A stretch of DNA of 64,000 nucleotides from Flavobacteriales bacterium. Its GTDB lineage: Bacteria > Bacteroidota > Bacteroidia > Flavobacteriales_F > PHOS-HE28. Both the position numbers and the translations under genes were made by a program. The DNA is taken from NCBI GenBank assembly GCA_013360395.1, contig JABWBQ010000002.1:16703-80702 (forward strand). Reading direction: 5' to 3'. The notes under the pieces are model-generated. The model was not told where the DNA came from. It did not search any database and saw only the letters and a program-made list of their open reading frames with translations. Shown here one piece after another: positions 9,406 through 62,525 of this stretch; position 1 is the first letter of the stretch, and each line of letters begins with the position of its first letter.

Positions 9406-9882
9406 TCCCAATTCGCACTAAGACGTAGGCCGAACTACTCGGTCTCTTTCCGCATGACTTCTCCGTCGTGATCGTTCCGCAGCCCATGCTATGCAACGCC
9501 CCCGCCGTATCGTCCTGTGTAGTGATCCCTTCGTATCTCTAGCCTACGCCTTCGTGCGAAATGGGATAAGCGGATACGGGTTGAACGGGACGGCCGCGTT
9601 CAGGGCGGCAGCCATGTTCCGCGCCGGGTGTGGTGTGGTTGGTGCACCGAAGTGTAAGGGTGGAGCACTGAACCCGCGTGACGGATCGCAGCGGCACCCC
9701 GCACCCCGAGGGCCCAGAGCGTAGCGCAGCGGAGTCGAAGGGTGCGAGGGGGAGGAGTACAGCGAAGAGCCGGACCCCGAGAACCCTGAGCGGAGGCTCT
9801 GCGAAGTCGAAGGGTGCGAGGGGGCACGCCCAAACCCACCTTCCATTTCACGCTTTCGACCGCGCACCGGTATTTTCGCGGC

Positions 9883-12800
9883 ATGTCAACAGCCGTAGCC
9901 CCTCCATACGTCCCCAAGCACAAGATCCGCGTGGTCACCGCCGCCTCGTTGTTCGATGGTCACGATGCCGCCATCAACATCATGCGGCGGATCATCCAGA
10001 GCACCGGCGCCGAGGTGATCCACCTGGGGCACGACCGCAGCGTGGAGGATGTGGTGAACACCGCGATCCAGGAGGATGCCCACGCCATTGCCATGACCAG
10101 CTACCAGGGCGGGCACGTGGAGTACTTCAAGTACATGCACGACCTGCTGAAGGAGAAGGGCGCGGGGCACATCAAGATCTTCGGCGGCGGCGGGGGTACC
10201 ATCCTGCCCAGCGAGATCGAGGAGTTGCACGCCTACGGCATCACGCGGCTGTACCACCCGGACGATGGCCGCGCCATGGGCCTGCAGGGCATGATCAACG
10301 ACATGCTGGAGCAGGCCGACTACGACCTGAGCGACCAGGTGAACGGTGAGGCGAAGAAGCTGACCCCGCAGAACTGGACGGCCATCGCCAAGCTGATCAG
10401 CACGGCGGAGAACCACCCGCAGGTGTTCGAGAAGATCGCCGACGAGGTCCACAAGAAGGCCGCGGCCAGCAAGGCGCCGGTGCTGGGCATCACGGGCACG
10501 GGCGGTGCGGGCAAGAGCAGCATGGTGGATGAGCTGATCCGTCGTTTCGTGCTGGACCAGCCCGGCAAGACCATCGGCGTGATCAGCGTGGACCCCAGCA
10601 AGCGCAAGACCGGCGGCGCGTTGCTGGGCGACCGCATCCGCATGAACAGCATCCGCGGCGAGCGGGTGTACATGCGCAGTCTCGCTACGCGGCAGAGCAA
10701 CCTCGCGCTCAGCAAGCACGTGAAGGAAGCCGTGGCCATCCTGAAGGCAGCGGGCTTCGACCTGGTGGTGCTGGAGACCAGCGGCATCGGCCAGAGCGAC
10801 ACCGAGATCCTGGATCACAGTGATGTTTCGCTCTACATCATGACGCCCGAGTTCGGTGCGGCCACGCAGCTGGAGAAGATCGACATGCTCGACTTCGCCG
10901 ACGTGGTGGCCATCAACAAGTTCGACAAGCGCGGCGCCCTCGATGCCCTGCGCGACGTGAAGAAGCAGTACAAGCGCAACCACCAACTGTGGGACGCCAA
11001 GGACGAGGACCTGCCCGTGGTGGGCACCATCGCCAGCCAGTTCAACGACCCCGGCACCAACGCCCTCTACGCGCGGCTGATGCGCAAGATCAAGGAGAAG
11101 ACCGGCATCGAGCTCGATAGCAGCTTCCACGCGCACGACGAGATGAGCGAGAAGGTGTGGATCATCCCGCCCGCCAAGAGCCGCTATCTGAGCGAGATCA
11201 GCGAGAGCAATCGGAGGTATGATGGCAAGGTGCGCAAGCAGGCGGAGATCGCGGACAAGCTGTACGGGTTGTATTCGGCTGTACTCACCTTCGGTGGCAC
11301 TGACCTTTTGGAGTCGGAAGTCCCGAGGCCCCTGAGTCACGAGTCGGGCGCGAAAGCGACTCACGACTCACGACTTACGGACTCAGTCGACTTCCTCATT
11401 CAAAGGTTCGAAGAACTGAAGAAAGACCTGGATCCCCACCTCTGGTCCATGCTCCAGAACTGGAAGGCCGAGGAGGAACGCTACTCCGGCGAGTTCTACA
11501 CCTACACCGTGCGAGGCAAGGAGATCAAGGTGCCGAACCACAGCGAGAGCCTCAGTCACCTGAAGATCCCGAAAGTCGCGCTGCCGAAGTTCCGCAGCTG
11601 GGGCGACAAGGTGCGTTGGGCCATGCAGGAGAACACGCCCGGCTTCTTCCCCTACACCGCGGGCATCTACCCGTTCAAGCGCACCGGCGAGGACCCCGCG
11701 CGGATGTTCGCCGGCGAGGGCGGCCCCGAGCGCACCAACAAGCGCTTCCACTACGTGAGCCAGGGCATGCCCGCCAAGCGCCTCAGCACCGCCTTCGACA
11801 GCGTGACGCTCTATGGCAACGACCCCGGCCGTCGTCCCGACATCTACGGCAAGGTGGGCAACAGCGGCGTGAGCATCTGCTGCCTCGACGATGCCAAGAA
11901 GCTCTACAGCGGCTTTGACCTCAGCGACCCGAAGACCTCGGTGTCCATGACCATCAACGGTCCCGCGCCCATGCTGCTCGGCTTCTTCATGAACGCGGCG
12001 ATCGACCAGAACTGTGAGAAGTACATACGGGAGCACGGGTTGGAGAAGGAGGTGGAGAAGAAGATCAAGGAGCGCTGGGAGAAGTTGGAGAAGGCGAATG
12101 GCGAATGGTCAATGGCGAATGGAGGGCGCGGCTTTTCCCATTCACCAACTCCCATTCACCATTCACCTCGACCTCGCTACCACGGAGACATACCTGCGGG
12201 GAACGATGGTCTGGGCTTGCTCCTCCTCGGCATCACCGGCGACCAGGTCCTCCCGAAAGACGTCTACGAGAAGATCAAGGCCGAAACGCTGCAACAGGTC
12301 CGCGGCACCGTGCAGGCCGACATCCTGAAGGAAGACCAGGCGCAGAACACCTGCATCTTCAGCACCGAGTTCGCGCTGCGGCTCATGGGCGACGTGCAGC
12401 AGTACTTCATCGACAAGAAAGTCCGCAACTTTTACAGCGTCAGCATCAGCGGCTACCACATCGCGGAGGCCGGCGCCAACCCCATCAGCCAGCTCGCCTT
12501 CACGCTGGCCAACGGCTTCACCTACGTGGAGTACTACCTGAGCCGCGGCATGGACATCAACGCTTTCGCGCCGAACCTCAGCTTCTTCTTCAGCAACGGC
12601 ATGGACCCCGAGTACGCCGTGATGGGCCGCGTGGCGCGCCGCCTCTGGGCCAAGGCGCTCAAGCACCGCTACGGCGCCGACGAGCGCAGCCAGATGCTGA
12701 AGTACCACATCCAGACCAGCGGCCGCAGCCTCCACGCGCAGGAGATCGACTTCAACGACATCCGCACCACGCTCCAGGCGCTGTACGCCATCTACGACAA

Positions 12801-13401
12801 CTGCAATTCGCTCCACACCAACGCCTACGACGAGGCCATCACCACGCCCACCGAGGAAAGCGTGCGCCGCGCCATGGCCATCCAGCTCATCATCAACAAG
12901 GAGCTCGGCTTGGCCAAGAACGAGAACCCGCTGCAGGGGTCATTCATCATTGAAGAGTTGACAGACCTCGTTGAGGAAGCGGTCTTGACGGAGTTCGACC
13001 GCATCACCGAGCGTGGCGGCGTGCTGGGCGCCATGGAGACCATGTACCAGCGCGGCAAGATCCAGGAGGAAAGTCTCTACTACGAAACGCTGAAGCACAC
13101 CGGCGAATACCCGATCATCGGGGTGAACACCTTCCTCAGCAGTAAAGGATCACCGACGATCCTGCCGAAGGAAGTGATCCGTGCCACGGAAGAGGAGAAG
13201 GAGGCGCAGATCGCAACGGTGGAGAACCTCAAGGCCGCCTACGCCCCCGAAGCCGCCAAGGCCCTGAAGGACCTGCAACAAGCGGCGGTCCACAACGAGA
13301 ATATGTTCGAGGTGCTGATGGAGGCGTGTAAGTATTGCTCGCTGGGGCAGCTGACTGCGGCGATGTTTGAGGTGGGGGGGCAGTACAGGAGGAATATGTA
13401 G
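9883..13401 (+). CDS. icmF: fused isobutyryl-CoA mutase (B12-binding domain + MeaB-like G-protein chaperone + mutase catalytic domain)
   Basis: N-terminal [12 protein letters not shown] (DxHxxG B12-binding motif). Central [13 protein letters not shown]-loop, [21 protein letters not shown] and the NKFD motif of MeaB/ArgK GTPases. C-terminal [20 protein letters not shown]... and [10 protein letters not shown]... of methylmalonyl-CoA-mutase-type TIM barrels. Start taken at ATG 9883 (ORF track begins at GTG 9814). Confidence 0.85.
11321..11395 (+). repeat. in-frame nested palindromic insertion inside icmF (codes [28 protein letters not shown])
   Basis: Outer arms cggaagtc/gacttcc. Inner arms gagtcacgagtcg / cgactcacgactc around gggcgcgaaagc. 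It lies in the linker after the GTPase domain and is absent from the expected mutase consensus. Confidence 0.5.
12093..12168 (+). repeat. in-frame hairpin insertion with tandem 9-mers inside icmF (codes ...[25 protein letters not shown]...)
   Basis: Left arm ggcgaatggcgaatggtcaatggcgaatggag. Right arm ctcccattcaccaactcccattcaccattcacc is its imperfect reverse complement, with loop ggcgcggcttttc. Confidence 0.55.
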
Positions 13402-16129: not shown

Positions 16130-17173
16130 TCAAGGGAAACAGAATCCGCCGGGGATGATGCCCGCTAGGAAGCTGCCGAGCTCCGTTCCGCCGGGGCTGT
16201 ACCGAAGGACCACACCGTGTTGCACGTAATCGACCGCATCGGAGACGTAGATGGTACCATTGTCCGGATCCACGCCGAGGCCGTAGAAGTTGCGGTTGTC
16301 GGCGGGGATGAAGGCATTGGTCGGCAGGACGCTGTCGTGGATGGCCATGCGGTACACCCCGCCGTCGAGGAAGTACAGCACATCGTGTGCGTCGTTGATG
16401 GTGAGCCGCCACGGTGATGCGGAAGCGGGAAAGGCGAAGCTGGCCTCCACCGCGAGCGTGGCGGGATCGAAGCGATGCAGTGCCGGGGCGATGCCGCCGC
16501 CCATGGACCCGCCGCAGAGGACCCAGAGCCTGCCGTTGGCATCCTGCCGGATGCTGCTGCCCCCGATGGAGACGGGGATGCTGTCGATGAGCTGGTCCGT
16601 CGCGGTGTCGATCACCAGCACCTGGTCGCCTTCCGGTGCGGTGACGAAGGCTTTTCCGTAGGCGAGCGCCAACTCCTCCGTCCGCCCGGGCACGGGGATG
16701 CTGCCGGTGATGGTGTTGGTGACCAGGTCCACCACGGCGATGGCATCCGCGAACAGGTCGGTCACGTAGGCCTTGCCATTGCTCACGGGCAGCAGGTAGC
16801 GCGGCGAACTGAACCCGGTGATGGTCGCGGTGGCGACGAAGGTCTGCGGGTCCACCACCACCACCTTGCCGGAGTTGTTCACGACCAGGTAGCCGCGGTC
16901 GTTGAACAGCGTCATGCTCTGGCACACATCCCCCAGCGCGCTGCCGTTCGCGGGCGCGTAGAGGTCCTCCACGGTGGTGCCGTTCGTCCTGTCGTGGTAG
17001 CTCACCGTCGCGTTGCCCCATCCGAAGTTGCCCTCGTTGGTGATGTACACCCCGTCAGAGCCGACCACGACCGGCGTGTCGTCCGGTGGTCCCGGTCGGT
17101 CCTTGCGGCAGGACGACGATCCCAGGGCGAGCAATGCGAGGCAGAGGAGCAGGAGCTTAGTACGCATGGGCAA
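16130..17173 (-). CDS. YncE-like beta-propeller lipoprotein (DUF5074-like), B12-uptake-locus associated
   Basis: Lipoprotein signal ...LALGSSSC. Repeated YVTD/IYVSD-type propeller motifs. Last gene of the riboswitch-controlled operon. Confidence 0.55.
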   Translation of the reverse strand: MPMRTKLLLLCLALLALGSSSCRKDRPGPPDDTPVVVGSDGVYITNEGNFGWGNATVSYHDRTNGTTVEDLYAPANGSALGDVCQSMTLFNDRGYLVVNNSGKVVVVDPQTFVATATITGFSSPRYLLPVSNGKAYVTDLFADAIAVVDLVTNTITGSIPVPGRTEELALAYGKAFVTAPEGDQVLVIDTATDQLIDSIPVSIGGSSIRQDANGRLWVLCGGSMGGGIAPALHRFDPATLAVEASFAFPASASPWRLTINDAHDVLYFLDGGVYRMAIHDSVLPTNAFIPADNRNFYGLGVDPDNGTIYVSDAVDYVQHGVVLRYSPGGTELGSFLAGIIPGGFCFP

Positions 17174-18143
17174 CGATGAGCGGGTGTGTGATGCGCTTGC
17201 CGGGCATCAGGACCTCCAGGAAATACGCGCCTGGGCGCAGTCCGTTGAGGTCCAGGTCGAGGATGTGCATGCCGACCGCCGGCCAGGTCCGCACCGGGCG
17301 GCCCTGGACATCGACGAGGATGATGGTGGTGGCCGTGGGCTCCGGGAGGCTCAACCGGGTGCTGCCGCAGGCGGGGACGGGGTAGAGGTGCGGCACGGCC
17401 TCCGGCGGGCCGTCCATGCCGACCGGTCCCTGGTGGATGACGCCCACGGCATCCAGGTCGAATCCGCCGGAGGCGAAGGGCGTGCTCCACGGGTCGTTGA
17501 TCTTTTGGCCCAGATGGTCGTGCGTGGCGTAGGCCTCCTGGATGCAACCGACCACATCCACGATCCGCACGTGGGTGATGGCGGTCACGTCCAGGCCGGG
17601 AGCGCCGGCGAGCTGGTCCAGGTCGAAGGGGGTGCCGAAGCCGCCGCGGTATTTCCCCGCGAGGTTGTCGACCTGGGTCGCATCCACCGCGCCGAACCCT
17701 TCCACCTGGGTGGTGGTCTGGGTGTTGCTGGTGGCCGGGAAGCGCACGAAGGTGGTGCCGTCGCTGCTCACCTCCACGAAGGCGAGCTCCAGGTAAGTGT
17801 CGCTGAAACTGTTCTCGAACACGGCGAAGTCCCAGCCGGGGCCGTTGGTGAGGGGCTGGGCGAAGGTGAGCGTGGCGGTGCCGCCATCGCCCAGGCTCAC
17901 CACCCCGTTGGTGCCCGCTGCGCCGGTGCCCAGGGAGTCGGCGCCCGTGCTGGCGGGGCCAAGGCCCGGGTCGGTGATGTCCATCGGACCGCGTTGCACG
18001 GTGCAGCCGGTGGCCCAGGCGATGAGGATCGTGCTGTCCTGCGCGATGGCGGTGGTGCCGGGCTGTCCCGCGGGTGGCGGGAACTGCGCACGGGCGGGGA
18101 GCACGGCGAGCAGCAAGGCGGCGCAGAGGGAGGGATGTTTCAT
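17157..18143 (-). CDS. cell-surface protein (DUF4465-like) with T9SS C-terminal domain
   Basis: True start at internal MKHPSLCAALLLAVLPARAQ (signal peptide). The ORF-track N-terminal 168 aa are a low-complexity artefact. C-terminal ...TTIILVDVQGRPV....PGAYFLEV... is CTD-like. Overlaps btuB-like by 4 nt. Confidence 0.5.
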   Translation of the reverse strand: MKHPSLCAALLLAVLPARAQFPPPAGQPGTTAIAQDSTILIAWATGCTVQRGPMDITDPGLGPASTGADSLGTGAAGTNGVVSLGDGGTATLTFAQPLTNGPGWDFAVFENSFSDTYLELAFVEVSSDGTTFVRFPATSNTQTTTQVEGFGAVDATQVDNLAGKYRGGFGTPFDLDQLAGAPGLDVTAITHVRIVDVVGCIQEAYATHDHLGQKINDPWSTPFASGGFDLDAVGVIHQGPVGMDGPPEAVPHLYPVPACGSTRLSLPEPTATTIILVDVQGRPVRTWPAVGMHILDLDLNGLRPGAYFLEVLMPGKRITHPLIVAHAY

Positions 18144-20050
18144 GGTTTCGACGGCCGGTGGAACTGCATGCTCACCCCGAGCTGGTAGTTGCGCATGGGC
18201 ATGGGCCGGTTGAGCATGGCTTCGTAGACCGTGTTGAGGATGTTGTTGCACCGGGCCTCGATGCTGAAGGTGCAGCGCTTCAGCGGGGGCGGCCGGTAGG
18301 CGAACCGCACGTTGGCCAGCCAGTAGGGCTCCAGGTAGGCCCGGTTGTCCGTGCTCGTGTACCGGTAGCCGGTGTAGCTCAGGGTGCCGGTGAGGGAGTA
18401 CCCCTGGTAGTTGAGGCCGAGCCGTCCCCGGCCGCTGTACATCGGCACATAGATCAGCTGTTTGTCCACCGAGGCGTCGTTGGCGCTGGTGCGGATCCGG
18501 TTGGTGGAGACGACGTGGTCGGTGAGCACCGCGAGCTGCACGCCCAGACGGCCCAGGTGGAAGTTCGCGGTGGTGTTCGTTTCCACCCCGCGGCTCCAGA
18601 CCTGCATCAGGTTGCGCGGGCTCCAGTAGGCGGGACCGGGCGTCCACTGGATCCAGTCGTCGATGAGCCGGTTGAACCAGGTGACCTCGCTGCGCACGGT
18701 GAGGCTTCTCCAGGTGCGGTGAAGCACTGCGCCCAGGTCGCCGCTGTAGCCTTGTTCGGAACGCAGGTCCGGGTTGCCGCCGGGCTGCCAGTGGAGGTCG
18801 TTGAACGAGGGCGTCCTGTACACTTTGGAGGCCTGCGCCTTCAGGGTCAACCAGCGCAGCACGACCTGCTCGGCGCCGAGGGAGAAGGTGAACGGCACGG
18901 CATGGCCATCGAGCACTTCCTGCCGCGCGGAGGCGCTGGCCACGAGGTGTTCGTTCCCGCTGGTGTACCGATAGGCGGCGAAGAGGGCGATGCGGTCCTG
19001 CCGGGGCTCCTGGGGGTATCCGTCCGCGGCGGCCCGCGCGTAGGTGCCGTTGAGGCCCAGGTGAACGTGGTGGCGTCGGGCGGGCTGCAAGCGCGTTTCC
19101 GCCTCGGCGATCAAGGTGCGCGAGCGGTTCAAGGCGGGCGCGGCGCCATCGGCGGCGTACCAGTCCAGGCGCTCGTCGAACCAGGCGACGCGTGCGCTGG
19201 TGGTCGCCCGATCCCCGGTGCGCTGCCAGTCCGCCGTGAGCCGCAGGCTTTGGTCGAGCTGCCGTGCGCTGCCTGGCGGTTCCACGGTGGTGGGGGGGAT
19301 GCGCCTGTCGCTTTCCTGGTACCAGGCGTGCGTACCGAGGCGCTGCCGGTCGGTCAGGCGCACATGCACATCGCCCAGGAGGCCGCGTTGCAGGAATGCG
19401 GCATCGGCGCGGTGCTGGTCCGGTCCGTCGCCGGCGGTGTTCCGGGGCAGGGTGAGGTCATTGTCGGCGGTGGCGTTGTACGCGGCAAGGCCCACGCTGA
19501 GCCTTCTTCCGGACCGTTGCACGCGCACCCGTTGCCGCAGGTCGGCGAAGCTGCCGATGGAAAGCCCGGCATCCACGCGCAGGCCGTCGTTGAAGAAGGG
19601 CAGGGCGTGGAGCAGGACCGCACCGCCGACCGCCCCGCTGCCCCAGAGGGCCGTGCTGCCGCCGTATTGCACGGCGATGCTGTTGGCCACCTGCACGGGC
19701 AGGAGCGACAGGTCAAGCTGGCCGTTCATGGGGCTGCCGATGTTGAACCCGTTCCAGAGCACGGCGGTGTGGAAGGCGCTTCCGCCGCGGAACGCGGCGG
19801 TGGCCAGCCCGCCGGGCCCGTAGCTCTTCACGAAGACGGGGGTCTCCTCGGTCAGCAGGCGGCCCAGGTCGGAGAAGCCGTGGTGCGCCAGTGCGGCGCT
19901 GTCCATCACGACGAGTTTCGTTCCGGGCGTCGCGGTGATGCGCGGCGCCACCACTTCCACGGCCCGGAGCAGCACCGTGTCCGTGAGCGACTGGCCGCAG
20001 AGGAGCGACCCCGCGACACAGGCACCGATGGACAGGAGCGGTCGCCGCAT
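18140..20050 (-). CDS. btuB: TonB-dependent outer-membrane receptor, BtuB-like (vitamin B12)
   Basis: 636 aa. N-terminal plug (DTVLLRAVEVVA... TonB-box-like). Beta-barrel with C-terminal ...LGVSMQFHRPSKP ending in an aromatic-rich motif. Sits in a cobalamin-riboswitch operon. Confidence 0.75.
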   Translation of the reverse strand: MRRPLLSIGACVAGSLLCGQSLTDTVLLRAVEVVAPRITATPGTKLVVMDSAALAHHGFSDLGRLLTEETPVFVKSYGPGGLATAAFRGGSAFHTAVLWNGFNIGSPMNGQLDLSLLPVQVANSIAVQYGGSTALWGSGAVGGAVLLHALPFFNDGLRVDAGLSIGSFADLRQRVRVQRSGRRLSVGLAAYNATADNDLTLPRNTAGDGPDQHRADAAFLQRGLLGDVHVRLTDRQRLGTHAWYQESDRRIPPTTVEPPGSARQLDQSLRLTADWQRTGDRATTSARVAWFDERLDWYAADGAAPALNRSRTLIAEAETRLQPARRHHVHLGLNGTYARAAADGYPQEPRQDRIALFAAYRYTSGNEHLVASASARQEVLDGHAVPFTFSLGAEQVVLRWLTLKAQASKVYRTPSFNDLHWQPGGNPDLRSEQGYSGDLGAVLHRTWRSLTVRSEVTWFNRLIDDWIQWTPGPAYWSPRNLMQVWSRGVETNTTANFHLGRLGVQLAVLTDHVVSTNRIRTSANDASVDKQLIYVPMYSGRGRLGLNYQGYSLTGTLSYTGYRYTSTDNRAYLEPYWLANVRFAYRPPPLKRCTFSIEARCNNILNTVYEAMLNRPMPMRNYQLGVSMQFHRPSKP

Positions 20051-20056
20051 GCCCTC

Positions 20057-21169
20057 CTACTGCACGACGATCGTACGCTTCGCGGTGCCGGTGTGCACCA
20101 CGTAGGCCCCGGCCGGCCAGGTGCTCACATCAACGCTGCGCACGCCGGTGCCCACGGGCAGCCGGGCCATGTGCCTGCCGGTGATGTCGTACACCGTGAT
20201 GGCCTGTGCGGCGTGGCCGGTGTTCAGGTGGAGCAGGTCGGTGGCCGGCTGGGGGTAGGCCTGCAGGAGCTCCTGGCTGGTCTCGGGAAGGCTTGTCGGG
20301 CCGGAGGCTGCCACGGGAAGGTCGGGCCGCAGGGCCGGTGCGAAGTCGGTGTACGAACAGCCGAAGAGCTCGCCGTTCGTAACCGTGTCGCTCACGCCCA
20401 TGTTCATGCTCCAATTGCCCAGGTTGGTCGCGCTCCAGGTGCTCCAGAAGGCGGGGGAGCCGCCGATGCCGGCGTGGGTGCCGTAGGTGATGTCGTTCAG
20501 GAAGCCGCCCACGATCACCACCTCGAGGAGCGGGTCGGCCGCGGCGATGGCGTTCATCATCGTCTGGCCGTCGGTGGTCCCGTCGAACCGGTAGCCCCAC
20601 GCATACGAATCCGTTCCGCTGCCATCCTGGAAGTCGATGACCAGCACGGCGCTGTTCGTCCCCGTGCCGACCCAGTAGGTGACGTCGCTGGCGGTGAACT
20701 GGAAGGGGGCGAAGGCGGCGAACGGTTCGGTCGGCGCCAGCGCCGGTGCGAAGTCCGTGTACGAGCAGCCGAACCACTCCCCGTTGGAAAGTACCTCGCC
20801 GATCCCGCTGTTCATGGCCATCGTGGCGATGTCGGTACCGGTCCAGGTGCTCCAGTAGTCGGGTGCGCCACCGATGCCGGCATGCACCCCGTAGGTGATG
20901 TCGTTGAGGAAGCCCCCCACGATGGCCACGTCGAGGTTCGTGTCCGCGGCGGCCACGTCGTTGAGCATGGTCCCGGCCGTGGCGGTCCCGTCGTGCAGGT
21001 AGCCCCAGGCGAAGCTCTGGCCGTCGAAGCTGCCGTCCTGGAAGTCGATCACCAGCACCGACGAATCGGTGCCCGAGCCGACCCAGTACTGCACGTCCTG
21101 GAGGGAGAATTGGGCTTGTGCGCTGGCCGGGGCCAGCAGCAGGGCGAGGGGGAGTATGCGTGTGTTCAT
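20057..21169 (-). CDS. secreted tandem-repeat protein with T9SS C-terminal sorting domain (first gene after the cobalamin riboswitch)
   Basis: Start at internal MNTRILPLALLLAPASAQAQ. Two ~140-aa internal repeats (...VQYWVGSGTDSSVLVIDFQDGS...GGFLNDITYGVHAGIGG... and ...VTYWVGTGTNSAVLVIDFQDGS...GGFLNDITYGTHAGIGG...). CTD ...ITVYDITGRHMARLPVG...GAYVVHTGTAKRTIVVQ. Confidence 0.6.
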   Translation of the reverse strand: MNTRILPLALLLAPASAQAQFSLQDVQYWVGSGTDSSVLVIDFQDGSFDGQSFAWGYLHDGTATAGTMLNDVAAADTNLDVAIVGGFLNDITYGVHAGIGGAPDYWSTWTGTDIATMAMNSGIGEVLSNGEWFGCSYTDFAPALAPTEPFAAFAPFQFTASDVTYWVGTGTNSAVLVIDFQDGSGTDSYAWGYRFDGTTDGQTMMNAIAAADPLLEVVIVGGFLNDITYGTHAGIGGSPAFWSTWSATNLGNWSMNMGVSDTVTNGELFGCSYTDFAPALRPDLPVAASGPTSLPETSQELLQAYPQPATDLLHLNTGHAAQAITVYDITGRHMARLPVGTGVRSVDVSTWPAGAYVVHTGTAKRTIVVQ

Positions 21170-21288
21170 CCGGTGGGGGTGTGTGGTTGCCTTGTTCAAG
21201 CTCCCAGGATGAAGTGCCGTGGAGATGCGCGAAGCGGCGCACGTTCCGGGCTTGCTCCTTTTCCTGGAAGCAAATGCCGTTCGTGCTG

Positions 21289-21445
21289 GCGACAGGTCTT
21301 CTGGCTTGCCCGCCTTCCGGTGCCTTCCCATCCACCTTGCGGTGGGCAGTGGCCTCTTGCCGGTCGGCTGCTTCGGGCTTACAGCTTCAGGTAAAGCCCA
21401 GGATTCGCACCTGGTTCCCTTTTCACCCCGGTGTGACCCGGGGAT
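21289..21445 (-). ncRNA. cobalamin (AdoCbl) riboswitch
   Basis: Minus-strand sequence ...GGGUGAAAAGGGAACCAGGUGCGAAUCCUGG...GGCCACUGCCCACCGCAAGGUGGAUGGGAAGGCACCGG...GCCAGAAGACCUGUCGCC contains the AAxxGGGAA / GGUG.AAUCC core, the GCCACUG B12 box, GGGAAGGC and the GCCAG.AGACCUG 3' element. ~120 nt upstream of the operon's first start codon. Confidence 0.8.
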
Positions 21446-21605
21446 CGACAGCGCGGCGAATGTAGGCGATCGAGGCCGCCGGCCAACAGGGAACGGTCAG
21501 GAACGGGAGAATGGCCCGGGGCCGGAGCGCCGACCGTGCTACGGGGGTGCGGCCGCGGCACTGCGGGGATCGTCAAATAAAAGTAAATAAATACCGGTAT
21601 ATGCT

Positions 21606-23081
21606 TTGAGCGGCTACCTTTGTGCCGGACCGAAAGCAACGACCATGGGAACGACCACAGGGATGATCCTCGACGTGACACGGCTGGCGCCGATGGAGAA
21701 GCACAGCACCATCTTCAACCGCATCGCACGATTGCAGGAGGGGGAGAGCCTGATCATCCACAACGATCACGACCCGGCCCCGTTGCGCTACCAGCTGGCG
21801 CACACCCACCAGGACACCGTGGCGTGGGAGTACCTGGAGCAGGGCCCGCAGTGGTGGAAGGTGAAGCTCACGCGCCGTGCGCCACGCAACGAGAAGGGGC
21901 GCAACATCCTGGATGTGACGCAGCTGGCGCCACACGAGAAGCACGCCACCATCTTCGCCCGCATCGCCCGTCTGCAGGGCGGGGAGAGCCTCACCCTCCA
22001 CAACGACCACGACCCGGTGCCGCTCCGCTACCACCTGGAGGCCGAGCACGGCGATGCCTACGGCTGGGAATACCTGGAGCAGGGGCCCGCATGGTGGAAG
22101 GTGAGGATCACCCGGCGGATCACCGGCGCCGGCGCGGACGGTGCGAATGAGCTGGATGTCACCAAGCTGGCCCCGCGCGAGAAGCATCCCACCATCTTCA
22201 GCCGTTACCACGCCCTGAAAGGCGGCGAGAGCCTCATCATCCACAACGATCACGATCCAAGGCCGCTGTACTACCAGATGCAGGGCGAAATGGGCGATGT
22301 GTTCACCTGGGAATACTTGGAGGAGGGCCCGCGGTGGTGGCGGGTGCGGATCACCAAAAGGTCGGCGGGCAACAGCGGCGAGCGGCTGGGTGAGATGGTG
22401 GTCCGGGACATGCGCAAGGCGGACGTGCTCAAGCGCAACGGCCTGGACTTCTGCTGCCACGGCGACATGACCTTGAACGAGGCCTGTGCGGCCCGGGGCA
22501 TCGACGTGGTGCGCGTGGAACAGGAGCTGCGCGAAGTGGAGAAGGACCAGGGCCGGTCGGCCCTGCCGTACGGCGAATGGGAGATCGACTTCCTGGCGGA
22601 CTTCATCGTCAACATGCACCATCGCTTCCTGCGCAACAACCTGCAGGACATCCGGACCTATGCCGCCAAGGTGGAGCAGGTGCACGGGGACAGCCATCCC
22701 GAGCTCCACCGCGTGAACGACCTGGTGCAGGCGTTGTGCGACGAGCTGACGGCCCACGTGGAGGACGAGGAGAAGACCCTGTTCCCCTACATCCGGCAGA
22801 TGGTGGCCGCCAGGAACGCGGGGCGAACGAGGCCGGCCAGCGCCATGGGCCCGCTGAACGAGAAGGTGGACAAGCTGGTGCTGGAGCATACCGAGGTCGG
22901 CGGCATGATCGACGAGCTGCACGACGTCACCGGCGGGTACGCCCCGCCTGCGGACGCCTGCGCCAGCTACACGCTGCTGTACCGCAAGCTGCAGGAACTG
23001 GAGGACGATACACACATCCACATCGCCCTGGAGAACCACCTCCTGTTCCGCAAGGCGGCGGAGATGGAGCTGATTGTCTGA
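21606..23081 (+). CDS. fusion of three DUF2249 repeats with a RIC/ScdA-type (repair of iron centres) di-iron hemerythrin-like protein
   Basis: Three ~90-aa repeats (LDVT.LAP.EKH.TIF.RIARLQ.GESL..HNDHDP.PLRYQL...W.V.ITRR). Then ScdA_N-like ...KRNGLDFCCHGDMTLNEACAARGID... and hemerythrin-like His/Glu-rich helices. Confidence 0.6.
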   Translation: MSGYLCAGPKATTMGTTTGMILDVTRLAPMEKHSTIFNRIARLQEGESLIIHNDHDPAPLRYQLAHTHQDTVAWEYLEQGPQWWKVKLTRRAPRNEKGRNILDVTQLAPHEKHATIFARIARLQGGESLTLHNDHDPVPLRYHLEAEHGDAYGWEYLEQGPAWWKVRITRRITGAGADGANELDVTKLAPREKHPTIFSRYHALKGGESLIIHNDHDPRPLYYQMQGEMGDVFTWEYLEEGPRWWRVRITKRSAGNSGERLGEMVVRDMRKADVLKRNGLDFCCHGDMTLNEACAARGIDVVRVEQELREVEKDQGRSALPYGEWEIDFLADFIVNMHHRFLRNNLQDIRTYAAKVEQVHGDSHPELHRVNDLVQALCDELTAHVEDEEKTLFPYIRQMVAARNAGRTRPASAMGPLNEKVDKLVLEHTEVGGMIDELHDVTGGYAPPADACASYTLLYRKLQELEDDTHIHIALENHLLFRKAAEMELIV

Positions 23082-23184
23082 TCCGAGCAACGGGCCGTGG
23101 AGGGGATAGTGGACTTCGTGTGAAGGGTGTGCCGGGTGGTGTACTTTTATTGGTGAGCAGGGGGAGGGCGTGGGGGAGAATGTG

Positions 23185-23295
23185 CGTGTGGAGAGGGGGT
23201 GAGAAAGGTGAGGATGGAGAGGGAGTGGGAATGGTGAGAAAGTGAAAAGGAGAGAAGGGAGAGAAGGGAGAGAAAGGAGAGAAGAGGAAGGCGTG
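23185..23295 (+). repeat. polypurine (GA-rich) low-complexity tract
   Basis: gagagggggtgagaaaggtgaggatggagagggagtgggaatggtgagaaagtgaaaaggagagaagggagagaagggagagaaaggagagaagagg... Almost exclusively G/A on the plus strand. Intergenic. Confidence 0.6.
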
Positions 23296-23377
23296 ATCGG
23301 GTGAAGCGGGACGGGCGAATGGGTGCAGGTCCGGAGTTGATGGAGGATAGGGGTGGTTCACGACGAACAACGGGTGG

Positions 23378-24199
23378 ATGGAAATGGGCAAACTGACGAT
23401 AGACGCCAACACGAAGATCGCGGCGCTGCTGCGGGAGAACCCGGAGGCGCTGGAGGCCATCGTTTCGATCTCGCCGAAGTTCACCAAGCTGCGCAACCCG
23501 TTGCTGCGCAAGTTGATGGCCTCGCGCACCACCATCGCCATGGCCAGCCGGATCGGCGGATGCCGGCCGGAGGACTTTTTCGCCAAGCTGCAGCCCCTGG
23601 GCTTTCGGATCGGCAGCGATGCCGTGGGTGAGGCCCCGGCACAGGCCGCGCCGATGCCGGCCTTCATGAAGCAGCTGAAACCTTCCGATGTCGTGGACCT
23701 GGACGTGCGCCCCATCCTCGCCGGCGGTGAGGACCCCTTCAACCTGATCCTGAAGAAGGTGGGTGAGCTGCAAGCGGGACAGGCGCTGCGGATCATCAAC
23801 GACTTCGACCCCGTGCCCCTGGTGCAGCTGCTGGGCAAACGCGGCTTCGAGACCTACGGCGAGGTGCTCCAAGGCGGGGTGTTCCACACCTATTTCTTCA
23901 AGGGCGGCGCCGTGCGGATGGGCGCCACGGAGGCCGGGAAGCGCAGTGCGGACTGGGCGGAGGTGCTCCAGCGATACGAGGGAAGGATGAAGGAGATCGA
24001 CGTGCGTGACCTGGAGATGCCGCTGCCCATGCTGTCCATCCTGGAAGCGCTGGACCAGCTGCCCGCCGACCAAGCGCTGTACGTCAACCACAAGCGCATC
24101 CCCATGTTCCTGCTGCCCGAGCTGGAGGACCGGCGGTTCGACCACCGGAGCTGGGAGGTCGGGGAGGGGGACGTGAAGATGCTGATCTTCAAGGCGTAG
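23378..24199 (+). CDS. DUF1858 + DUF2249 domain protein
   Basis: N-terminal ...KIAALLRENPEALEAIVSI... (DUF1858-like). Two DUF2249-like segments (VDLDVRPILAGGEDPFNLILKKV... and IDVRDLEMPLPMLSILEAL...). Confidence 0.5.
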   Translation: MEMGKLTIDANTKIAALLRENPEALEAIVSISPKFTKLRNPLLRKLMASRTTIAMASRIGGCRPEDFFAKLQPLGFRIGSDAVGEAPAQAAPMPAFMKQLKPSDVVDLDVRPILAGGEDPFNLILKKVGELQAGQALRIINDFDPVPLVQLLGKRGFETYGEVLQGGVFHTYFFKGGAVRMGATEAGKRSADWAEVLQRYEGRMKEIDVRDLEMPLPMLSILEALDQLPADQALYVNHKRIPMFLLPELEDRRFDHRSWEVGEGDVKMLIFKA

Positions 24200-25489
24200 A
24201 TGACCGGCTCCCCGCTCGGCAACGTGGCGCGCACCACATCCCACAGGGTGGTGATCCCCTTCTACGTGTACGGCGCGGCCGCACTGCTGGTCGCCACGGT
24301 GATGCTCCTTGTCTCCCACCGGTCGTTCACGGGCCACTACTTCCAGCCGCACCTCCTGGCCATCACGCACACCATGGCGCTGGGCTGGGCCACCATGATC
24401 ATCCTGGGCGCCGGCCATCAGCTGTTCCCGGTGCTGGTGGAGACCGACCTGTACAGCGAGGGGCTGGCGCGTGCCTCGTTCCTTCTGGCGGCCGTGGGCA
24501 TACCGCTGCTCGTGTACGGTTTCCACAGCTTCGACCTGGGGCTGCCGGCCCGCCTGGGCGGAACGCTGGTGCTCGGGGCGGTGCTGGCCTTCATGGCGAA
24601 CATCGGCATGGGGCTGGTGCGCAGCAAGAGGGAGAACGTCCACGCCGTCTTCGTGTTCACCTCCACGGCCTGGCTGCTGCTCACCGCGGCGCTCGGCCTG
24701 GCGCTGCTGTTCAACTTCACCCGGTCGCTGCTGCCGCACGATTCGGTGCATTACCTCGGCCTGCACGCGCACCTGGGCATCGTGGGGTGGTTCCTGCTGC
24801 TGGTGCTGGGGGTCGGCTCCCGGTTGGTGCCCATGTTCCTCATCTCCAAATACACCGCGCCGCGGCTGCTCTGGGCGGTGTTCATCCTGGTGAACACGGC
24901 GCTGCTGGGCCACACGGTGTTCTTTCTCGTGGACATGCCCGCGTGGTCGGACTACGTGCCCGTGACCATGGTGGCCGCGGCATTGCTGCTCTTCGCCCAC
25001 TACTGCCGCCAGGCCTACAGGCAGCGCATCCGCCGCAAGGTGGACGCCCAGATGCGCGTGACCCTGCTGGCGGTGGCCCTGATGCTGCTGCCCACGGCGG
25101 TGCTGCTGGTCCTCCTCACCTCCATCGCGCTCGGGGGCGGCGCGCAGGTCCGGGTGGCGCTGCTCTACGGTTTCACCATCTTCTTCGGCTGGCTCACGGC
25201 CATCATCCTGGGGATGACCTTCAAGACCCTGCCCTTCATCGTCTGGAACAAGGTGTACCGGCCGCGTGCCACCCTGGGCAGGATGCCCGGGCCCAAGGAC
25301 CTGTTCAGCGACCGCCTCTTCCTGGCGACGGTGGCGGCCTACCTGGCGGGGTTCACCCTCTTCGGCTGGGGCATCGCCCAGGCATCGGTCGTATTGTTGA
25401 AGATCGGTGCCGTGGCCCTGCTGGCCACGGCCTTGCTGTACAACTGGAGCATCGGCAGGATGGTGTTCATCAAGCAACTCGGACCATGA
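24200..25489 (+). CDS. polytopic membrane protein, possibly NnrS-like/heme-copper-type
   Basis: 429 aa with ~12 TM helices and conserved His inside helices (HTMALGW, GAGHQLFP, HLGIVGWF, LGHTVFF). Sits in a DUF2249/RIC/Rrf2 context. The family assignment is inferred only. Confidence 0.35.
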   Translation: MTGSPLGNVARTTSHRVVIPFYVYGAAALLVATVMLLVSHRSFTGHYFQPHLLAITHTMALGWATMIILGAGHQLFPVLVETDLYSEGLARASFLLAAVGIPLLVYGFHSFDLGLPARLGGTLVLGAVLAFMANIGMGLVRSKRENVHAVFVFTSTAWLLLTAALGLALLFNFTRSLLPHDSVHYLGLHAHLGIVGWFLLLVLGVGSRLVPMFLISKYTAPRLLWAVFILVNTALLGHTVFFLVDMPAWSDYVPVTMVAAALLLFAHYCRQAYRQRIRRKVDAQMRVTLLAVALMLLPTAVLLVLLTSIALGGGAQVRVALLYGFTIFFGWLTAIILGMTFKTLPFIVWNKVYRPRATLGRMPGPKDLFSDRLFLATVAAYLAGFTLFGWGIAQASVVLLKIGAVALLATALLYNWSIGRMVFIKQLGP

Positions 25490-25806
25490 GCGCACCCGGA
25501 CAGGACGAATTGATCGACAAGGCACTGGATGCCCTGCGGACCGTGGACGACCCCGAGGTGGGCCTCAACGTGGTGGACCTCGGGCTGATCTACGAGATCG
25601 AGATCGGTCCGGACGCGCGGGAAGTGGACTGCCTGATGACCTTCACCACGGAGTTCTGCCCCATGGGAGCATCGATCCAGGCGGGCGTGACCGAAGCGCT
25701 GAAGATGACCTTCCCCGAGGCGGCGGTGCAGGTGCGCATCACCTTCGACCCGCCCTGGAGCCAGTCCATGATCTCCGAGGCGGGCCGGATGTTCCTTGGC
25801 GGATAG
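25486..25806 (+). CDS. DUF59 / Fe-S cluster assembly (SufT/MIP18-like) protein
   Basis: ~106 aa. ...DPEVGLNVVDLGLIYEIEI... with the conserved Cys (FTTEFCPMG) of the DUF59 family. ATGA overlap with the upstream gene. Confidence 0.65.
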   Translation: MSAPGQDELIDKALDALRTVDDPEVGLNVVDLGLIYEIEIGPDAREVDCLMTFTTEFCPMGASIQAGVTEALKMTFPEAAVQVRITFDPPWSQSMISEAGRMFLGG

Positions 25807-26242
25807 GACCATGCTGAGCCTGACGTGCAAGGCCGCCATCAAGGCCGTGACCTTCCTGGGGTCGCGGCTCGCCTCCGGCGAACGCTCGAGCCTGAAGGAG
25901 GTGGCAGCGTTCATCGACGAGAACGAGCACACCGTGGGCAAGCTGCTGCAACGGCTGGTGAAGGCCGGGGCCATCAAGAGCGCCAAGGGACCCAACGGCG
26001 GCTTCTACATGACGCCCCGCCAGGTGGAACAGCGGGTGATGCGCATCGTGGAGGCGATCGACGGCAAGGCGGTCTTCCAGGAGTGCGGCCTGGGCTTGCG
26101 CCGGTGCAGCGATGCGCGTCCGTGCCCCTTCCATGAACGCTACAAGCCCATCCGCGACCAGTTCCGGCAGCTGTGCGAGCACCAGCGTGTGAAGGACCTG
26201 TATGAAGAGGTCAACAGCGGGTCGGCGTACCTGGTGGGTTGA
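25796..26242 (+). CDS. Rrf2 family transcriptional regulator (NsrR/IscR-like, 3-Cys cluster-binding)
   Basis: N-terminal wHTH (...AIKAVTFLGSR...SLKEVAAFIDENEHTVGKLLQRLVKAGAIKSAKGPNGGF). Cys triad C-x7-C-x5-C (CGLGLRRCSDARPC). Confidence 0.75.
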   Translation: MADRTMLSLTCKAAIKAVTFLGSRLASGERSSLKEVAAFIDENEHTVGKLLQRLVKAGAIKSAKGPNGGFYMTPRQVEQRVMRIVEAIDGKAVFQECGLGLRRCSDARPCPFHERYKPIRDQFRQLCEHQRVKDLYEEVNSGSAYLVG

Positions 26243-26408: not shown

Positions 26409-27482
26409 ATGCCCCGTTTGCACACCACGCTGTCCACCGCGCTGTTGACCGCCCTTTTGCCCGCCGCGACGTGCGCACAGTTCGATTGCGGTACCGGCGT
26501 CTTCTACGGCCTGGGCTCGGATGGCAACGTCCACACGCTCATCATGTCCGGCGGCACCATCGCCCTGGGCCCGATCGTGAACAGTCAGGGCACCGGGCTC
26601 TTCGGCCTCGCCATGGCCGACTTCGGAGACGGGCTCACCCTTTATTCCGCAGCGAATCCCGGGGAAGTGAAGAAGCTCAATGGCGGGACATGGCAGACGG
26701 TGCAGACCGACACGCTTTACCGCATCAACGCCGGTGGGCGCGGCGATCACGTGTACTATCAGGTGGGCCGGCTGTTCAATCCCAACCCGTTGTTCCCCAA
26801 CCGCATCGAGCATTTCGACGGGACCGCCACCACCACCGTCTGGGACGACCAGACGGTTTACCAACCGGTGGCCGACGTGGCCGTGGACGGCGATGGCAAC
26901 GCCTACTTCTTCACCGGCCCCACCGCCTTCGATGTCACGGCCCTGAACGTGATGTCGCCCGCCGGCGTGGTACTGAGCACGATCCCCGTCGCCTTCGACG
27001 GGTTCAACGCCTTCGGCAGCTTCCTCATGGACGACAAGCTCTACGTCGGCTTCGGTGCGTCCAGCAACAACTGGCCCAACCAGCTCCTGCCCATCACCAT
27101 CAGCGGGAACAGCGCCACCCTCGGCACGCCCATCGACCTTCCCGTACCGGTGATCGGCATCGGACCCAATGGCCCGGTCTATCTCAGTTTCACGGACCTG
27201 GAGAGCTGTGCGGCCGAGACCATCGACCTCGCGACCGGTCTTCAGGCCATGGCATCACCGATGCCGGTACAAGTGATCACGGAGAACGGCGCGATACTCG
27301 TTGCGAGCGATCAGCGGCCCACCTGGATCCTAGTGACCGATGCCCTGGGCCGACGTATCCATGCGGAAGCACATCCCGACAACCGCACCCGGATCCCCAC
27401 GGCCGGCTGGCTGGATGGCCTCTACATCGTGGTGACGGAAGTGGCGGGGCAACGTTTCGTGGAGCGGATGGTGGTGCGGTGA
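26409..27482 (+). CDS. secreted hypothetical protein with T9SS-CTD-like C-terminus
   Basis: Signal peptide MPRLHTTLSTALLTALLPAATCAQ. C-terminal ...ILVTDALGRRIH....GLYIVVTEVAGQRFVERMVVR. Confidence 0.5.
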   Translation: MPRLHTTLSTALLTALLPAATCAQFDCGTGVFYGLGSDGNVHTLIMSGGTIALGPIVNSQGTGLFGLAMADFGDGLTLYSAANPGEVKKLNGGTWQTVQTDTLYRINAGGRGDHVYYQVGRLFNPNPLFPNRIEHFDGTATTTVWDDQTVYQPVADVAVDGDGNAYFFTGPTAFDVTALNVMSPAGVVLSTIPVAFDGFNAFGSFLMDDKLYVGFGASSNNWPNQLLPITISGNSATLGTPIDLPVPVIGIGPNGPVYLSFTDLESCAAETIDLATGLQAMASPMPVQVITENGAILVASDQRPTWILVTDALGRRIHAEAHPDNRTRIPTAGWLDGLYIVVTEVAGQRFVERMVVR

Positions 27483-29501: not shown

Positions 29502-30590
29502 ATGAATGCGTCGGCGACAAACCTTGCCAAGGTCCACATCCCGTTCCCATTCGGGGTGGTAACACAGGCCATGATCCCCTTCCGCACGACCCTTGCCCTT
29601 TGCTTCGGTTGCCTTCCTTTCACCGATCAGGCACAAGTCCTAACCGCACTTGATGTTCTTCCCCTGCTTGGGGATACTTTCCGCTACTACGGCGTGGAGG
29701 ACGATGAACTCTTCGATCCGGGGGAAGCTGGTTCCGGCGTGGTCTGGGACCATGAAGATCTGGTGGTCGAATTGGGGAGCTATACGCAGATCCGGCCGAT
29801 CGAACCCTCGACCGCACCCGGCATATCGACCTATCCAGCCAGCGACCTGGTGCTCGAGCGCACCATCAGTATGACGGCCGACCTGGAAAGGACCTACTTC
29901 GACCTCGACACCACGGGTTTGCGCGAGCTGGGTTCCACCGGCGATCCGTTGAGCTACGTGTTCGATGTGCCTGAGCGGGTGCAACCGATCCCGATGGTGT
30001 TCGACTCGGTATACACTGGATCGTACTGTCACAATTCCAGCGGTTTTGGCCCGTCGTACCATACCTGCGGTGAGACTTCCCATGTACTCGACGGCATCGG
30101 CACGCTGATCATGCCGTACGGTACCTTCAACGGTGTGCGGCGGACCACCTACTACAGGTATCATGTCAACGACGACTCACCGACGGATACCTCCCATGTC
30201 ACCTATCACCGTTGGTGGATCCCCGGGCTACGGCGCCCTGTTCTGGAGCTTTCCCGGTTCACAGGATCGAACGGTGTGGTGCTCTCCAACGCCAGGACCC
30301 TGACGCCATCCAGTGTATTGGGCGTTCCGGAGCTCGGAGCGAGGATGATCAGTGTGAGCCCCAACCCATTTGTGGACCGGGTCGAGGTGGTCCTGGCGGA
30401 ACCCATCCGGAAGGAGGGTACGGTCCGTGTTCTCGCCGCCGATGGTCGCGGCCTATATGACGGGAGGATCACGACCGGTACTTCACGGATCCTTGTGGAC
30501 CTGGGCAACCTTCCTTGCGGAATGCTCCTGATGGAGCTTGAACTGGACAGTGGCCGCAGGACATACAAACTGATACATCAGCAACAATGA
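29502..30590 (+). CDS. secreted hypothetical protein with T9SS C-terminal sorting domain
   Basis: Internal signal peptide MIPFRTTLALCFGCLPFTDQAQ. CTD ...ISVSPNPFVDRVEVVL....GLYDGRI.... Confidence 0.55.
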   Translation: MNASATNLAKVHIPFPFGVVTQAMIPFRTTLALCFGCLPFTDQAQVLTALDVLPLLGDTFRYYGVEDDELFDPGEAGSGVVWDHEDLVVELGSYTQIRPIEPSTAPGISTYPASDLVLERTISMTADLERTYFDLDTTGLRELGSTGDPLSYVFDVPERVQPIPMVFDSVYTGSYCHNSSGFGPSYHTCGETSHVLDGIGTLIMPYGTFNGVRRTTYYRYHVNDDSPTDTSHVTYHRWWIPGLRRPVLELSRFTGSNGVVLSNARTLTPSSVLGVPELGARMISVSPNPFVDRVEVVLAEPIRKEGTVRVLAADGRGLYDGRITTGTSRILVDLGNLPCGMLLMELELDSGRRTYKLIHQQQ

Positions 30591-60717: not shown

Positions 60718-60721
60718 GGGT

Positions 60722-62434: not shown

Positions 62435-62525
62435 CCAAGGTAGGGCGGTGAAAGGGCCGGGTCCAGGCGCCGGTCGATCTTTTCATCAACACGGTGCCTG
62501 CACGGCAGGACGGCCCCACGGTCGT

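Follow-up and report, generated by a model that had tools for sequence, protein, structure and literature searches.

Background

Many microbes require vitamin B12 but few produce it, and competition for it shapes communities. The closest described uptake systems are those of Bacteroides, in which several accessory proteins around BtuBG bind B12 and pass it on (PMC12751083, PMC13616437). The binders are either propellers (BtuG, with DUF5074; BtuK, with a PKD domain and a propeller) or jelly rolls (BtuH/J, with DUF4465) (PMC13616437), and the accessory binders are all lipoproteins. None of these surface binders is related in fold to the cobalamin carriers of animals. Here we describe a protein that occupies the same niche, in a riboswitch operon beside btuB and btuG, and for which the same capture and relay job is proposed. 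It is encoded at positions 20057..21169 of a stretch of 64,000 nucleotides from a Flavobacteriales bacterium (contig JABWBQ010000002.1 of assembly GCA_013360395.1); this whole stretch is referred to as the window. Unlike the Bacteroides binders, the protein consists of tandem repeats with a predicted beta-grasp fold, and instead of a lipoprotein signal it carries a signal-peptidase-I signal together with a C-terminal domain (CTD) of the type IX secretion system (T9SS). The family to which it belongs occurs for the most part in environmental Flavobacteriales (Crocinitomicaceae, Cryomorphaceae, Schleiferiaceae and many metagenome-assembled genomes, MAGs) and not in gut Bacteroides.

The predicted fold resembles the beta-domain (PF14478, DUF4430) of the cobalamin carriers transcobalamin (TC), intrinsic factor (IF) and haptocorrin (HC). 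In the carriers this domain touches the nucleotide side of cobalamin, and of the isolated human TC domains it is the beta-domain that still carries cobalamin after purification, not the alpha-domain (PMC5599065). The repeat protein differs from the carriers in having no alpha6/alpha6-barrel partner domain, in forming tandem arrays of one to seven copies, in bearing the signals for T9SS export, and in giving no direct profile or hidden Markov model (HMM) match to TC; moreover, the PF14478 model, which is 72 positions long, covers only the C-terminal half of the ~135-aa repeat. Bacterial relatives of this fold have been described. Lactobacillus sakei likewise has a secreted TC-beta-like protein, Lsa1839, encoded with Lsa1840 beside a cobalamin-type transporter and proposed to perform an extracellular scavenging step. 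That protein, however, is from a Gram-positive bacterium, is single copy, has an alpha-like partner (Lsa1840) and works with an energy-coupling factor (ECF) transporter rather than with TonB and BtuG, and the ligand proposed for it, from docking only, is haem. RUMGNA_00854 (PDB 3u7z), from a Firmicute, is a stand-alone DUF4430 single domain of 96 residues, and its function is not known. In the literature that was searched, B12 binders of Bacteroidota that are of the DUF4430 type or exported by the T9SS are not described, and the nearest case is the haem proposal for L. sakei.

The repeat protein and its operon

The features of the gene, of its product and of the operon are the following.

20057..21169, minus strand: coding sequence of the tandem-repeat T9SS protein, 370 aa, stop codon included (uninterrupted reading frame; homologs)
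21110..21169, minus strand: Sec signal peptide, residues 1-20, MNTRILPLALLLAPASAQAQ, with predicted mature N-terminus Gln20 (read from the sequence)
20714..21109, minus strand: repeat 1, residues 21-152, predicted transcobalamin-beta/DUF4430-like beta-grasp domain
20300..20701, minus strand: repeat 2, residues 157-290, predicted transcobalamin-beta/DUF4430-like beta-grasp domain (63% identity to repeat 1; same secondary-structure pattern in the full-length model)
20060..20257, minus strand: T9SS type-A C-terminal sorting domain, residues 305-370 (PF18962, TIGR04183, profile matches to solved CTDs)
21274..21464, minus strand: cobalamin riboswitch aptamer RF00174, leader of the operon (108.9 bits, gathering score 31.5, E 2.3e-26, model positions 1-189 of 189)
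18140..20050, minus strand: btuB, Bacteroides-type TonB-dependent B12 transporter, 636 aa (Plug and TonB_dep_Rec barrel domains)
17157..18143, minus strand: protein X, a second T9SS-CTD protein, 328 aa, with a ~230-aa N-terminal domain (corrected coordinates and frame)
16130..17173, minus strand: btuG, DUF5074 seven-bladed propeller lipoprotein, 347 aa, lipobox LGSSSC (PF16819, E 1.4e-28)

A longer open reading frame (ORF), reaching to 21331, was considered for the start of the repeat protein and rejected. It would overlap the riboswitch aptamer, and in an alignment of 49 homologs M1 is invariant and the signal peptide is aligned at 21169; we therefore take 21169 as the start codon. The signal peptide (MNTRILPLALLLAPASAQA followed by Q) is hydrophobic, ends in AQA directly before this Q and contains no lipobox cysteine. 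Gln20, which directly follows the predicted cleavage site, is invariant across the same 49 homologs. Repeats 1 (about residues 21-152) and 2 (about residues 157-290) are identical at 85 of 136 positions (63%, E 1e-60), and their alignment includes the stretches YWVGxGTxSxVLVIDFQDGS, GGFLNDITYGxHAGIGG and FGCSYTDFAPAL. Repeat 1 shares 64-80% with repeat 1 of other species and 50-64% with repeat 2. Each repeat thus resembles the corresponding repeat of other species more than the one beside it, and the duplication is therefore ancient. Residues 305-368 match both PF18962 (29.8 bits, cut-off 27) and TIGR04183 (31.9 bits, cut-off 23), and a search of the PDB with a full-protein profile matched the solved T9SS CTDs 5jvk, 7pzj and 8glk. 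Hence, the protein combines a C-terminal sorting domain with an N-terminal Sec signal, as T9SS type-A cargo does. The signal peptide, the two internal repeats with their long identical stretches and the T9SS CTD had all been noticed in an earlier reading made from the sequence alone (the sequence-only reading), and all of them were confirmed by the homolog alignment, the identity between the repeats and the two profile matches.

The aptamer lies 104 nt upstream of the start codon of the repeat protein. The btuB gene begins 6 nt after the stop codon of the repeat gene, and the start of protein X overlaps the stop codon of btuB (ATGA). A simple scan of the minus strand from the riboswitch to btuB, the stretch between aptamer and start codon included, predicted no terminator. 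On the strength of the 6-nt gap, the ATGA overlap and the lack of a predicted terminator between riboswitch and btuB, the repeat gene and btuB are probably co-transcribed. The sequence-only reading had taken co-transcription under a cobalamin riboswitch as given; the riboswitch is now established as a full-length RF00174 with btuB close behind the repeat gene, and a shared transcript is what this arrangement suggests.

The identity of the transporter genes is clear. The best PDB matches of BtuB are BtuB2/BtuB3 chains of Bacteroides thetaiotaomicron (8bmx_C, E 6.8e-55), and it also matches the chains 8p97_A and 8p98_A, entitled 'Vitamin B12 transporter BtuB' (E ~7e-54), as well as E. coli BtuB (1e-6). 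For the window BtuG, likewise, the matches are BtuG chains from solved complexes of Bacteroides BtuB and BtuG (8bmx_D, E 2e-69; 8p97_B, E 3.7e-65). The locus thus has an RF00174 leader, a BtuB-type transporter and a BtuG lipoprotein, the components of a riboswitch-controlled BtuB-BtuG uptake operon. About 2.7 kb beyond btuG, at 9790..13398 on the plus strand, lies a gene for a 1203-aa protein in which a B12-binding domain, a MeaB GTPase and methylmalonyl-CoA mutase are fused (IcmF-type). As a mutase of this type depends on adenosylcobalamin, the organism uses this cofactor and has a need for imported B12.

Predicted fold and superfamily of the repeat

Searches of the repeat protein against Pfam and NCBIfam matched only the CTD; neither the BtuG domain (DUF5074) nor that of BtuH/J (DUF4465) was detected. 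The statement in the sequence-only reading that the repeat is unlike the known BtuG- and BtuH-type families therefore holds, and no other Pfam family claims the repeat either. Searching PDB sequences with a profile of the repeat returned nothing outside T9SS CTDs and noise, and the same was the case for the full-protein profile and for a DUF4430-positive relative.

Structure prediction gave a more informative result. The AlphaFold2 model of a single repeat, built with an alignment of 32 repeat units, has a predicted local distance difference test (pLDDT) score of 91 and a predicted TM-score (pTM) of 0.88. The full-length model (pLDDT 87.9) is all-beta save for one helix per repeat and displays the same pattern twice. 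When the repeat model was used in Foldseek, the top 14 matches were all IF, TC or HC structures (TMq 0.47-0.58), and a clear gap separated the cobalamin-carrier beta-domains from generic beta-grasp proteins. Sequence identity to the carrier beta-domains in the structural alignments is 10-13%. The predicted fold of the repeat is thus the beta-grasp type seen in the beta-domain with which intrinsic factor, haptocorrin and transcobalamin bind cobalamin.

A bridge to this superfamily is also provided by distant members of the family. A search of 1.84 billion cluster representatives (50% identity) with the repeat profile yielded 1197 representatives at E<=1e-3 and 483 at E<=1e-10. Six of 20 distant multi-copy members (P0150, P0157, P0173, P0178, P0183 and P0197) pass PF14478 with scores of 28.1-57.8 bits, the highest being those of P0178 and P0183 (57.6 and 57.8 bits), and the matched region is the repeat's C-terminal half, in register. 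The control, human TC beta-domain, reaches 29.2 bits with PF14478. Together, the predicted structure and the transitive PF14478 matches suggest that the repeat is a divergent branch of the DUF4430/transcobalamin-beta superfamily. The sequence-only reading had named HMM and structure prediction of the repeat as a check; their outcome, a carrier beta-domain fold in a divergent DUF4430 branch, means that the repeat would not be an orphan.

The conserved positions, aromatic residues and glycines above all, comprise W10, G12, G14, W36, G37, W87, W90, N101 and G103. The invariant Cys116 (in the motif FGCSY) was considered as a cobalt ligand of the BtuM kind. This candidate was rejected, since 170 of 553 domain instances of the family contain no cysteine at all.

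B12 linkage of the family across species

Conservation of the gene neighbourhood was surveyed in one genome per GTDB species, and 80 loci were kept. They were picked by similarity to the repeat and are thus not independent samples of all DUF4430 proteins. Most are from Flavobacteriales MAGs; the others are from Crocinitomix, Croceimicrobium, Owenweeksia, Cryomorpha and a few MAGs labelled Bacteroidales or Chitinophagales. Using an HMM built from seven Rfam-validated riboswitches, we found a riboswitch in 77 of the 80 loci, always upstream and on the same strand. All of the 11 weakest calls were confirmed by Rfam (83-106 bits). Two of the three misses are contig edges, and the third (locus L077) is a true solitary gene, which is dealt with below. 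Homologs of btuB and btuG are present in the fetched flanks of 74 and 70 of the loci, respectively, and the misses are mostly contigs that end early. Protein X is encoded in 47.

The order of the genes is variable. If R, B, G and X denote the repeat gene, btuB, btuG and the gene of protein X, respectively, the orders R-B-G (25 loci) and R-X-B-G (24 loci) predominate, and R-B-X-G, B-R-X-G and R-B-G-X occur in six loci each. A shuffled order with a constant set of genes is typical of a functional module. Exact-protein look-ups, which led to metagenome and MAG loci, gave the same picture: RF00174 is located upstream in all seven, and a TonB-dependent transporter gene and a DUF5074 gene are present in all six that do not end at a contig end. 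Also the DUF4430-positive distant members P0178, P0183 and P0150 are encoded in riboswitch-led operons with an adjoining DUF5074 (BtuG-type) gene, and in two of these three a TonB-dependent transporter gene adjoins as well. The B12 linkage of the repeat family is therefore general. A survey of synteny had been proposed in the sequence-only reading, in which an unrelated domain assignment together with homologs never linked to B12 was to speak against a role in corrinoid capture; the outcome was the opposite.

In five loci from MAGs labelled Bacteroidales (L072, L073, L079, L083 and L085) the riboswitch-proximal ORF is ~600 aa long, with one repeat detected at E<1e-3. The remainder of these ORFs may consist of more divergent repeats or of another domain.

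Copy number, fusions and protein X

When 8000 candidates were scored, 312 homologs were obtained at E<=1e-3, among them two-repeat forms of ~370 aa and three-repeat forms of ~510 aa. Where they have been given names, these are generic, such as 'hypothetical protein' or 'T9SS type A sorting domain-containing protein'. Among the 266 family proteins that were retrieved, two copies of the repeat are the most common (132 proteins), followed by three (66), one (39), four (20) and five (7), and six and seven copies are found in one protein each.

The ~230-aa N-terminal domain of protein X has no match in Pfam, NCBIfam or the PDB, in which only the CTD of the protein is recognised. The N-terminal domain is highly conserved, with the motifs DFAVFENSFSD, YLELAxVEVSSDG, NLAGKY, GTPFDL and SGGFDLDAV. 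In 44 of the 266 family proteins this domain is fused C-terminally to one to five repeats (E ~1e-80); P0189, for example, is composed of one repeat, X and a CTD. Protein X may be another, uncharacterised component of the B12 relay.

A second kind of fusion is seen in P0179 (102..2543 of locus L011), in which a DUF5074 propeller, two repeats and a T9SS CTD form a single polypeptide. The nearest solved relative of this propeller is the B12-binding BtuK1, 9s6c (E 1.2e-8; PDB 9s6c is identified as BtuK1 in PMC13616437). We also considered P0179 as a BtuG fusion, but a phmmer comparison of the propeller with the window BtuG gave no match, and in view of the proximity to 9s6c it is regarded as a BtuK-like propeller fusion. 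The P0179 gene is located at a contig edge, and its neighbours encode an iron-type TonB-dependent receptor and an Fe-dependent repressor. Fusion of relay components is known from Bacteroides too, where BtuGH of B. thetaiotaomicron is an instance (PMC12751083). The fusions of repeat with X and of propeller with repeat argue that the repeat, X and propeller proteins share one pathway, and BtuGH is an argument of the same kind for B. thetaiotaomicron.

Proposed function and alternatives

We propose that the repeat protein is exported, acts as a multivalent binder of corrinoids and supplies them to BtuG-BtuB, being distinct from BtuG, BtuH/J and BtuK, and we give this reading a probability of about 0.7. 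At low cellular B12 the cobalamin riboswitch would permit expression of the four-gene operon for the repeat protein, BtuB, X and BtuG. The repeat protein would cross the inner membrane via Sec, after which its type-A CTD would route it through the T9SS, to remain tethered at the cell surface or to be set free. Because the isolated TC beta-domain retains cobalamin, each ~135-aa repeat is proposed to be a self-sufficient corrinoid-binding beta-grasp module. The two modules of the window protein, and the one to seven of its relatives, could then act as a multivalent trap for scarce corrinoids. A captured corrinoid would be handed to BtuG, the lipoprotein of very high affinity on BtuB, possibly via protein X, and would finally be imported by BtuG-BtuB with energy from TonB. 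A role in corrinoid capture at the surface had been suggested in the sequence-only reading. The capture part has gained the predicted TC-beta fold and the B12 linkage across species; as for the surface part, a type-A CTD permits anchoring to the cell as well as release.

Several results weigh against this proposal. On PF14478 (gathering score 23.8 bits) the full protein gave no match at E<=1 and the isolated repeats gave none at E<=10. Direct comparisons with transcobalamin were negative: hhalign of the repeat alignment with two TC beta-domains returned a probability of 0.5%, both profiles being shallow, and a family-wide HMM built from the 553 domain instances gave the TC beta-domain -1 bit, which does not exceed what 2000 shuffles reached. 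The link to TC thus rests on the predicted structure and on the PF14478 bridge. In addition, the alpha6/alpha6-barrel (PF01122) that closes over the ligand was not found in the repeat protein nor in the other three proteins of the operon. In TC, IF and HC the alpha-domain supplies half of the binding site, and without it the affinity and binding mode of the carriers should not be assumed. Membership of a B12 operon does not imply binding either, as BtuL and BtuK2 are accessory proteins of such operons that do not bind B12 (PMC12751083). Finally, the solitary two-repeat gene of L077 (5941..7053; MAG 'Bacteroidetes sp. RBC076') lies beside succinate dehydrogenase-like genes, and no cobalamin riboswitch, btuB or btuG was found within 5-6 kb on either side of it; it is the only such case among the species loci.

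The alternative that survives best, although we consider it improbable, is that the protein is co-regulated with B12 uptake without binding the vitamin, as a scaffold or spacer for BtuG-BtuB or X, as an adhesin, or as a surface or vesicle factor. BtuL and BtuK2 provide the precedent, all the more so as BtuL promotes the release of vesicles (PMC12751083), and the lack of a direct PF14478 match of the window repeats would be in agreement with it. However, the best structural matches are specifically cobalamin-carrier beta-domains, set off by a clear gap from generic beta-grasp proteins, and distant members that truly match PF14478 are themselves B12-linked. The fusion of the repeat to a BtuK-like, B12-binding propeller in P0179 argues in the same direction. 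Furthermore, a copy number varying from one to seven suits a module that provides capacity or avidity more than it suits a fixed scaffold.

A slightly less probable alternative retains corrinoid binding and changes the stoichiometry: two repeats would clamp one corrinoid, the second repeat taking the place of the TC alpha-domain, so that each pair would constitute one high-affinity site. The ligand of TC, IF and HC is indeed sandwiched between two domains (PMC5599065), and the two-repeat form is the commonest in the family (132 of 266). In the full-length model, the blocks of the linker around residues 140-160 have pLDDT values of ~90-94, a hint that the two repeats may have a fixed relative orientation. 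Odd copy numbers are frequent, however, with one, three, five and seven copies in 39, 66, 7 and 1 of the 266 proteins, and proteins with a single repeat fused to X exist, P0189 being an example. Binding of cobalamin by the TC beta-domain in isolation (PMC5599065) likewise favours one site per repeat. A ligand other than a corrinoid, such as haem, another tetrapyrrole or a metal, is very improbable: although the TC-beta-like Lsa1839 from a cobalamin-annotated ECF operon was proposed to scavenge haem (bioRxiv 10.1101/864751) and the depositors of the DUF4430 structure 3u7z called it a 'putative metal binding protein', a cobalamin-specific riboswitch governs the operon in 77 of 80 species, the transporter pair has as its ortholog BtuB-BtuG, a B12 system of characterised structure, and haem or iron genes are not part of the conserved module.

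Returning to the proposal of a multivalent corrinoid binder, both the fold class and the uptake system are known, and what is new is the combination of tandem, alpha-less TC-beta modules with export as T9SS cargo and with the partner X. The results suggest that environmental Flavobacteriales of lakes, oceans and activated sludge have a different solution to B12 capture, one that uses the fold of the animal carriers in a T9SS-exported array. If the repeats do bind corrinoids, they would represent a new class of corrinoid binder, a function would be assigned to the large divergent DUF4430 branch of 1197 cluster representatives, X would be flagged as a second partner domain, and a tractable model would be at hand for corrinoid binding by a beta-domain without an alpha partner. 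Cultured carriers of the family are Crocinitomix catalasitica ATCC 23190 and C. algicola. More tentatively, and with the odds rather against than for it, the family could constitute a fifth class of Bacteroidota B12 scavengers, namely alpha-independent TC-beta arrays that are exported by the T9SS, act with X and are perhaps released as a soluble 'cobalophore' that carries several corrinoids back to BtuG-BtuB; as such they would be the closest prokaryotic relatives of the gripping half of the carriers.

Other genes of the window

The window contains a further T9SS cargo, outside the operon, a DUF1501 protein with a T9SS CTD (59128..60798, minus strand) whose gene adjoins that of a DUF1800 protein (60725..62482, minus strand). 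Its presence is consistent with a working T9SS in the organism.

Divergent from the riboswitch, a cluster extends over 21606..26242 on the plus strand. It encodes a protein with three DUF2249 copies, ScdA_N and hemerythrin, which resembles the iron-sulfur repair protein RIC, as well as a DUF1858+DUF2249 protein, a 429-aa multi-pass membrane protein without a Pfam match and a regulator of the Rrf2 family. The cluster looks like a nitrosative or oxidative stress module. Beyond it, at 26409..27482 and 29502..30590 (both plus strand), two secreted-looking proteins of ~360 aa are encoded that have no Pfam match at E<=1e-4, and their C-terminal ends resemble T9SS sorting domains by eye.

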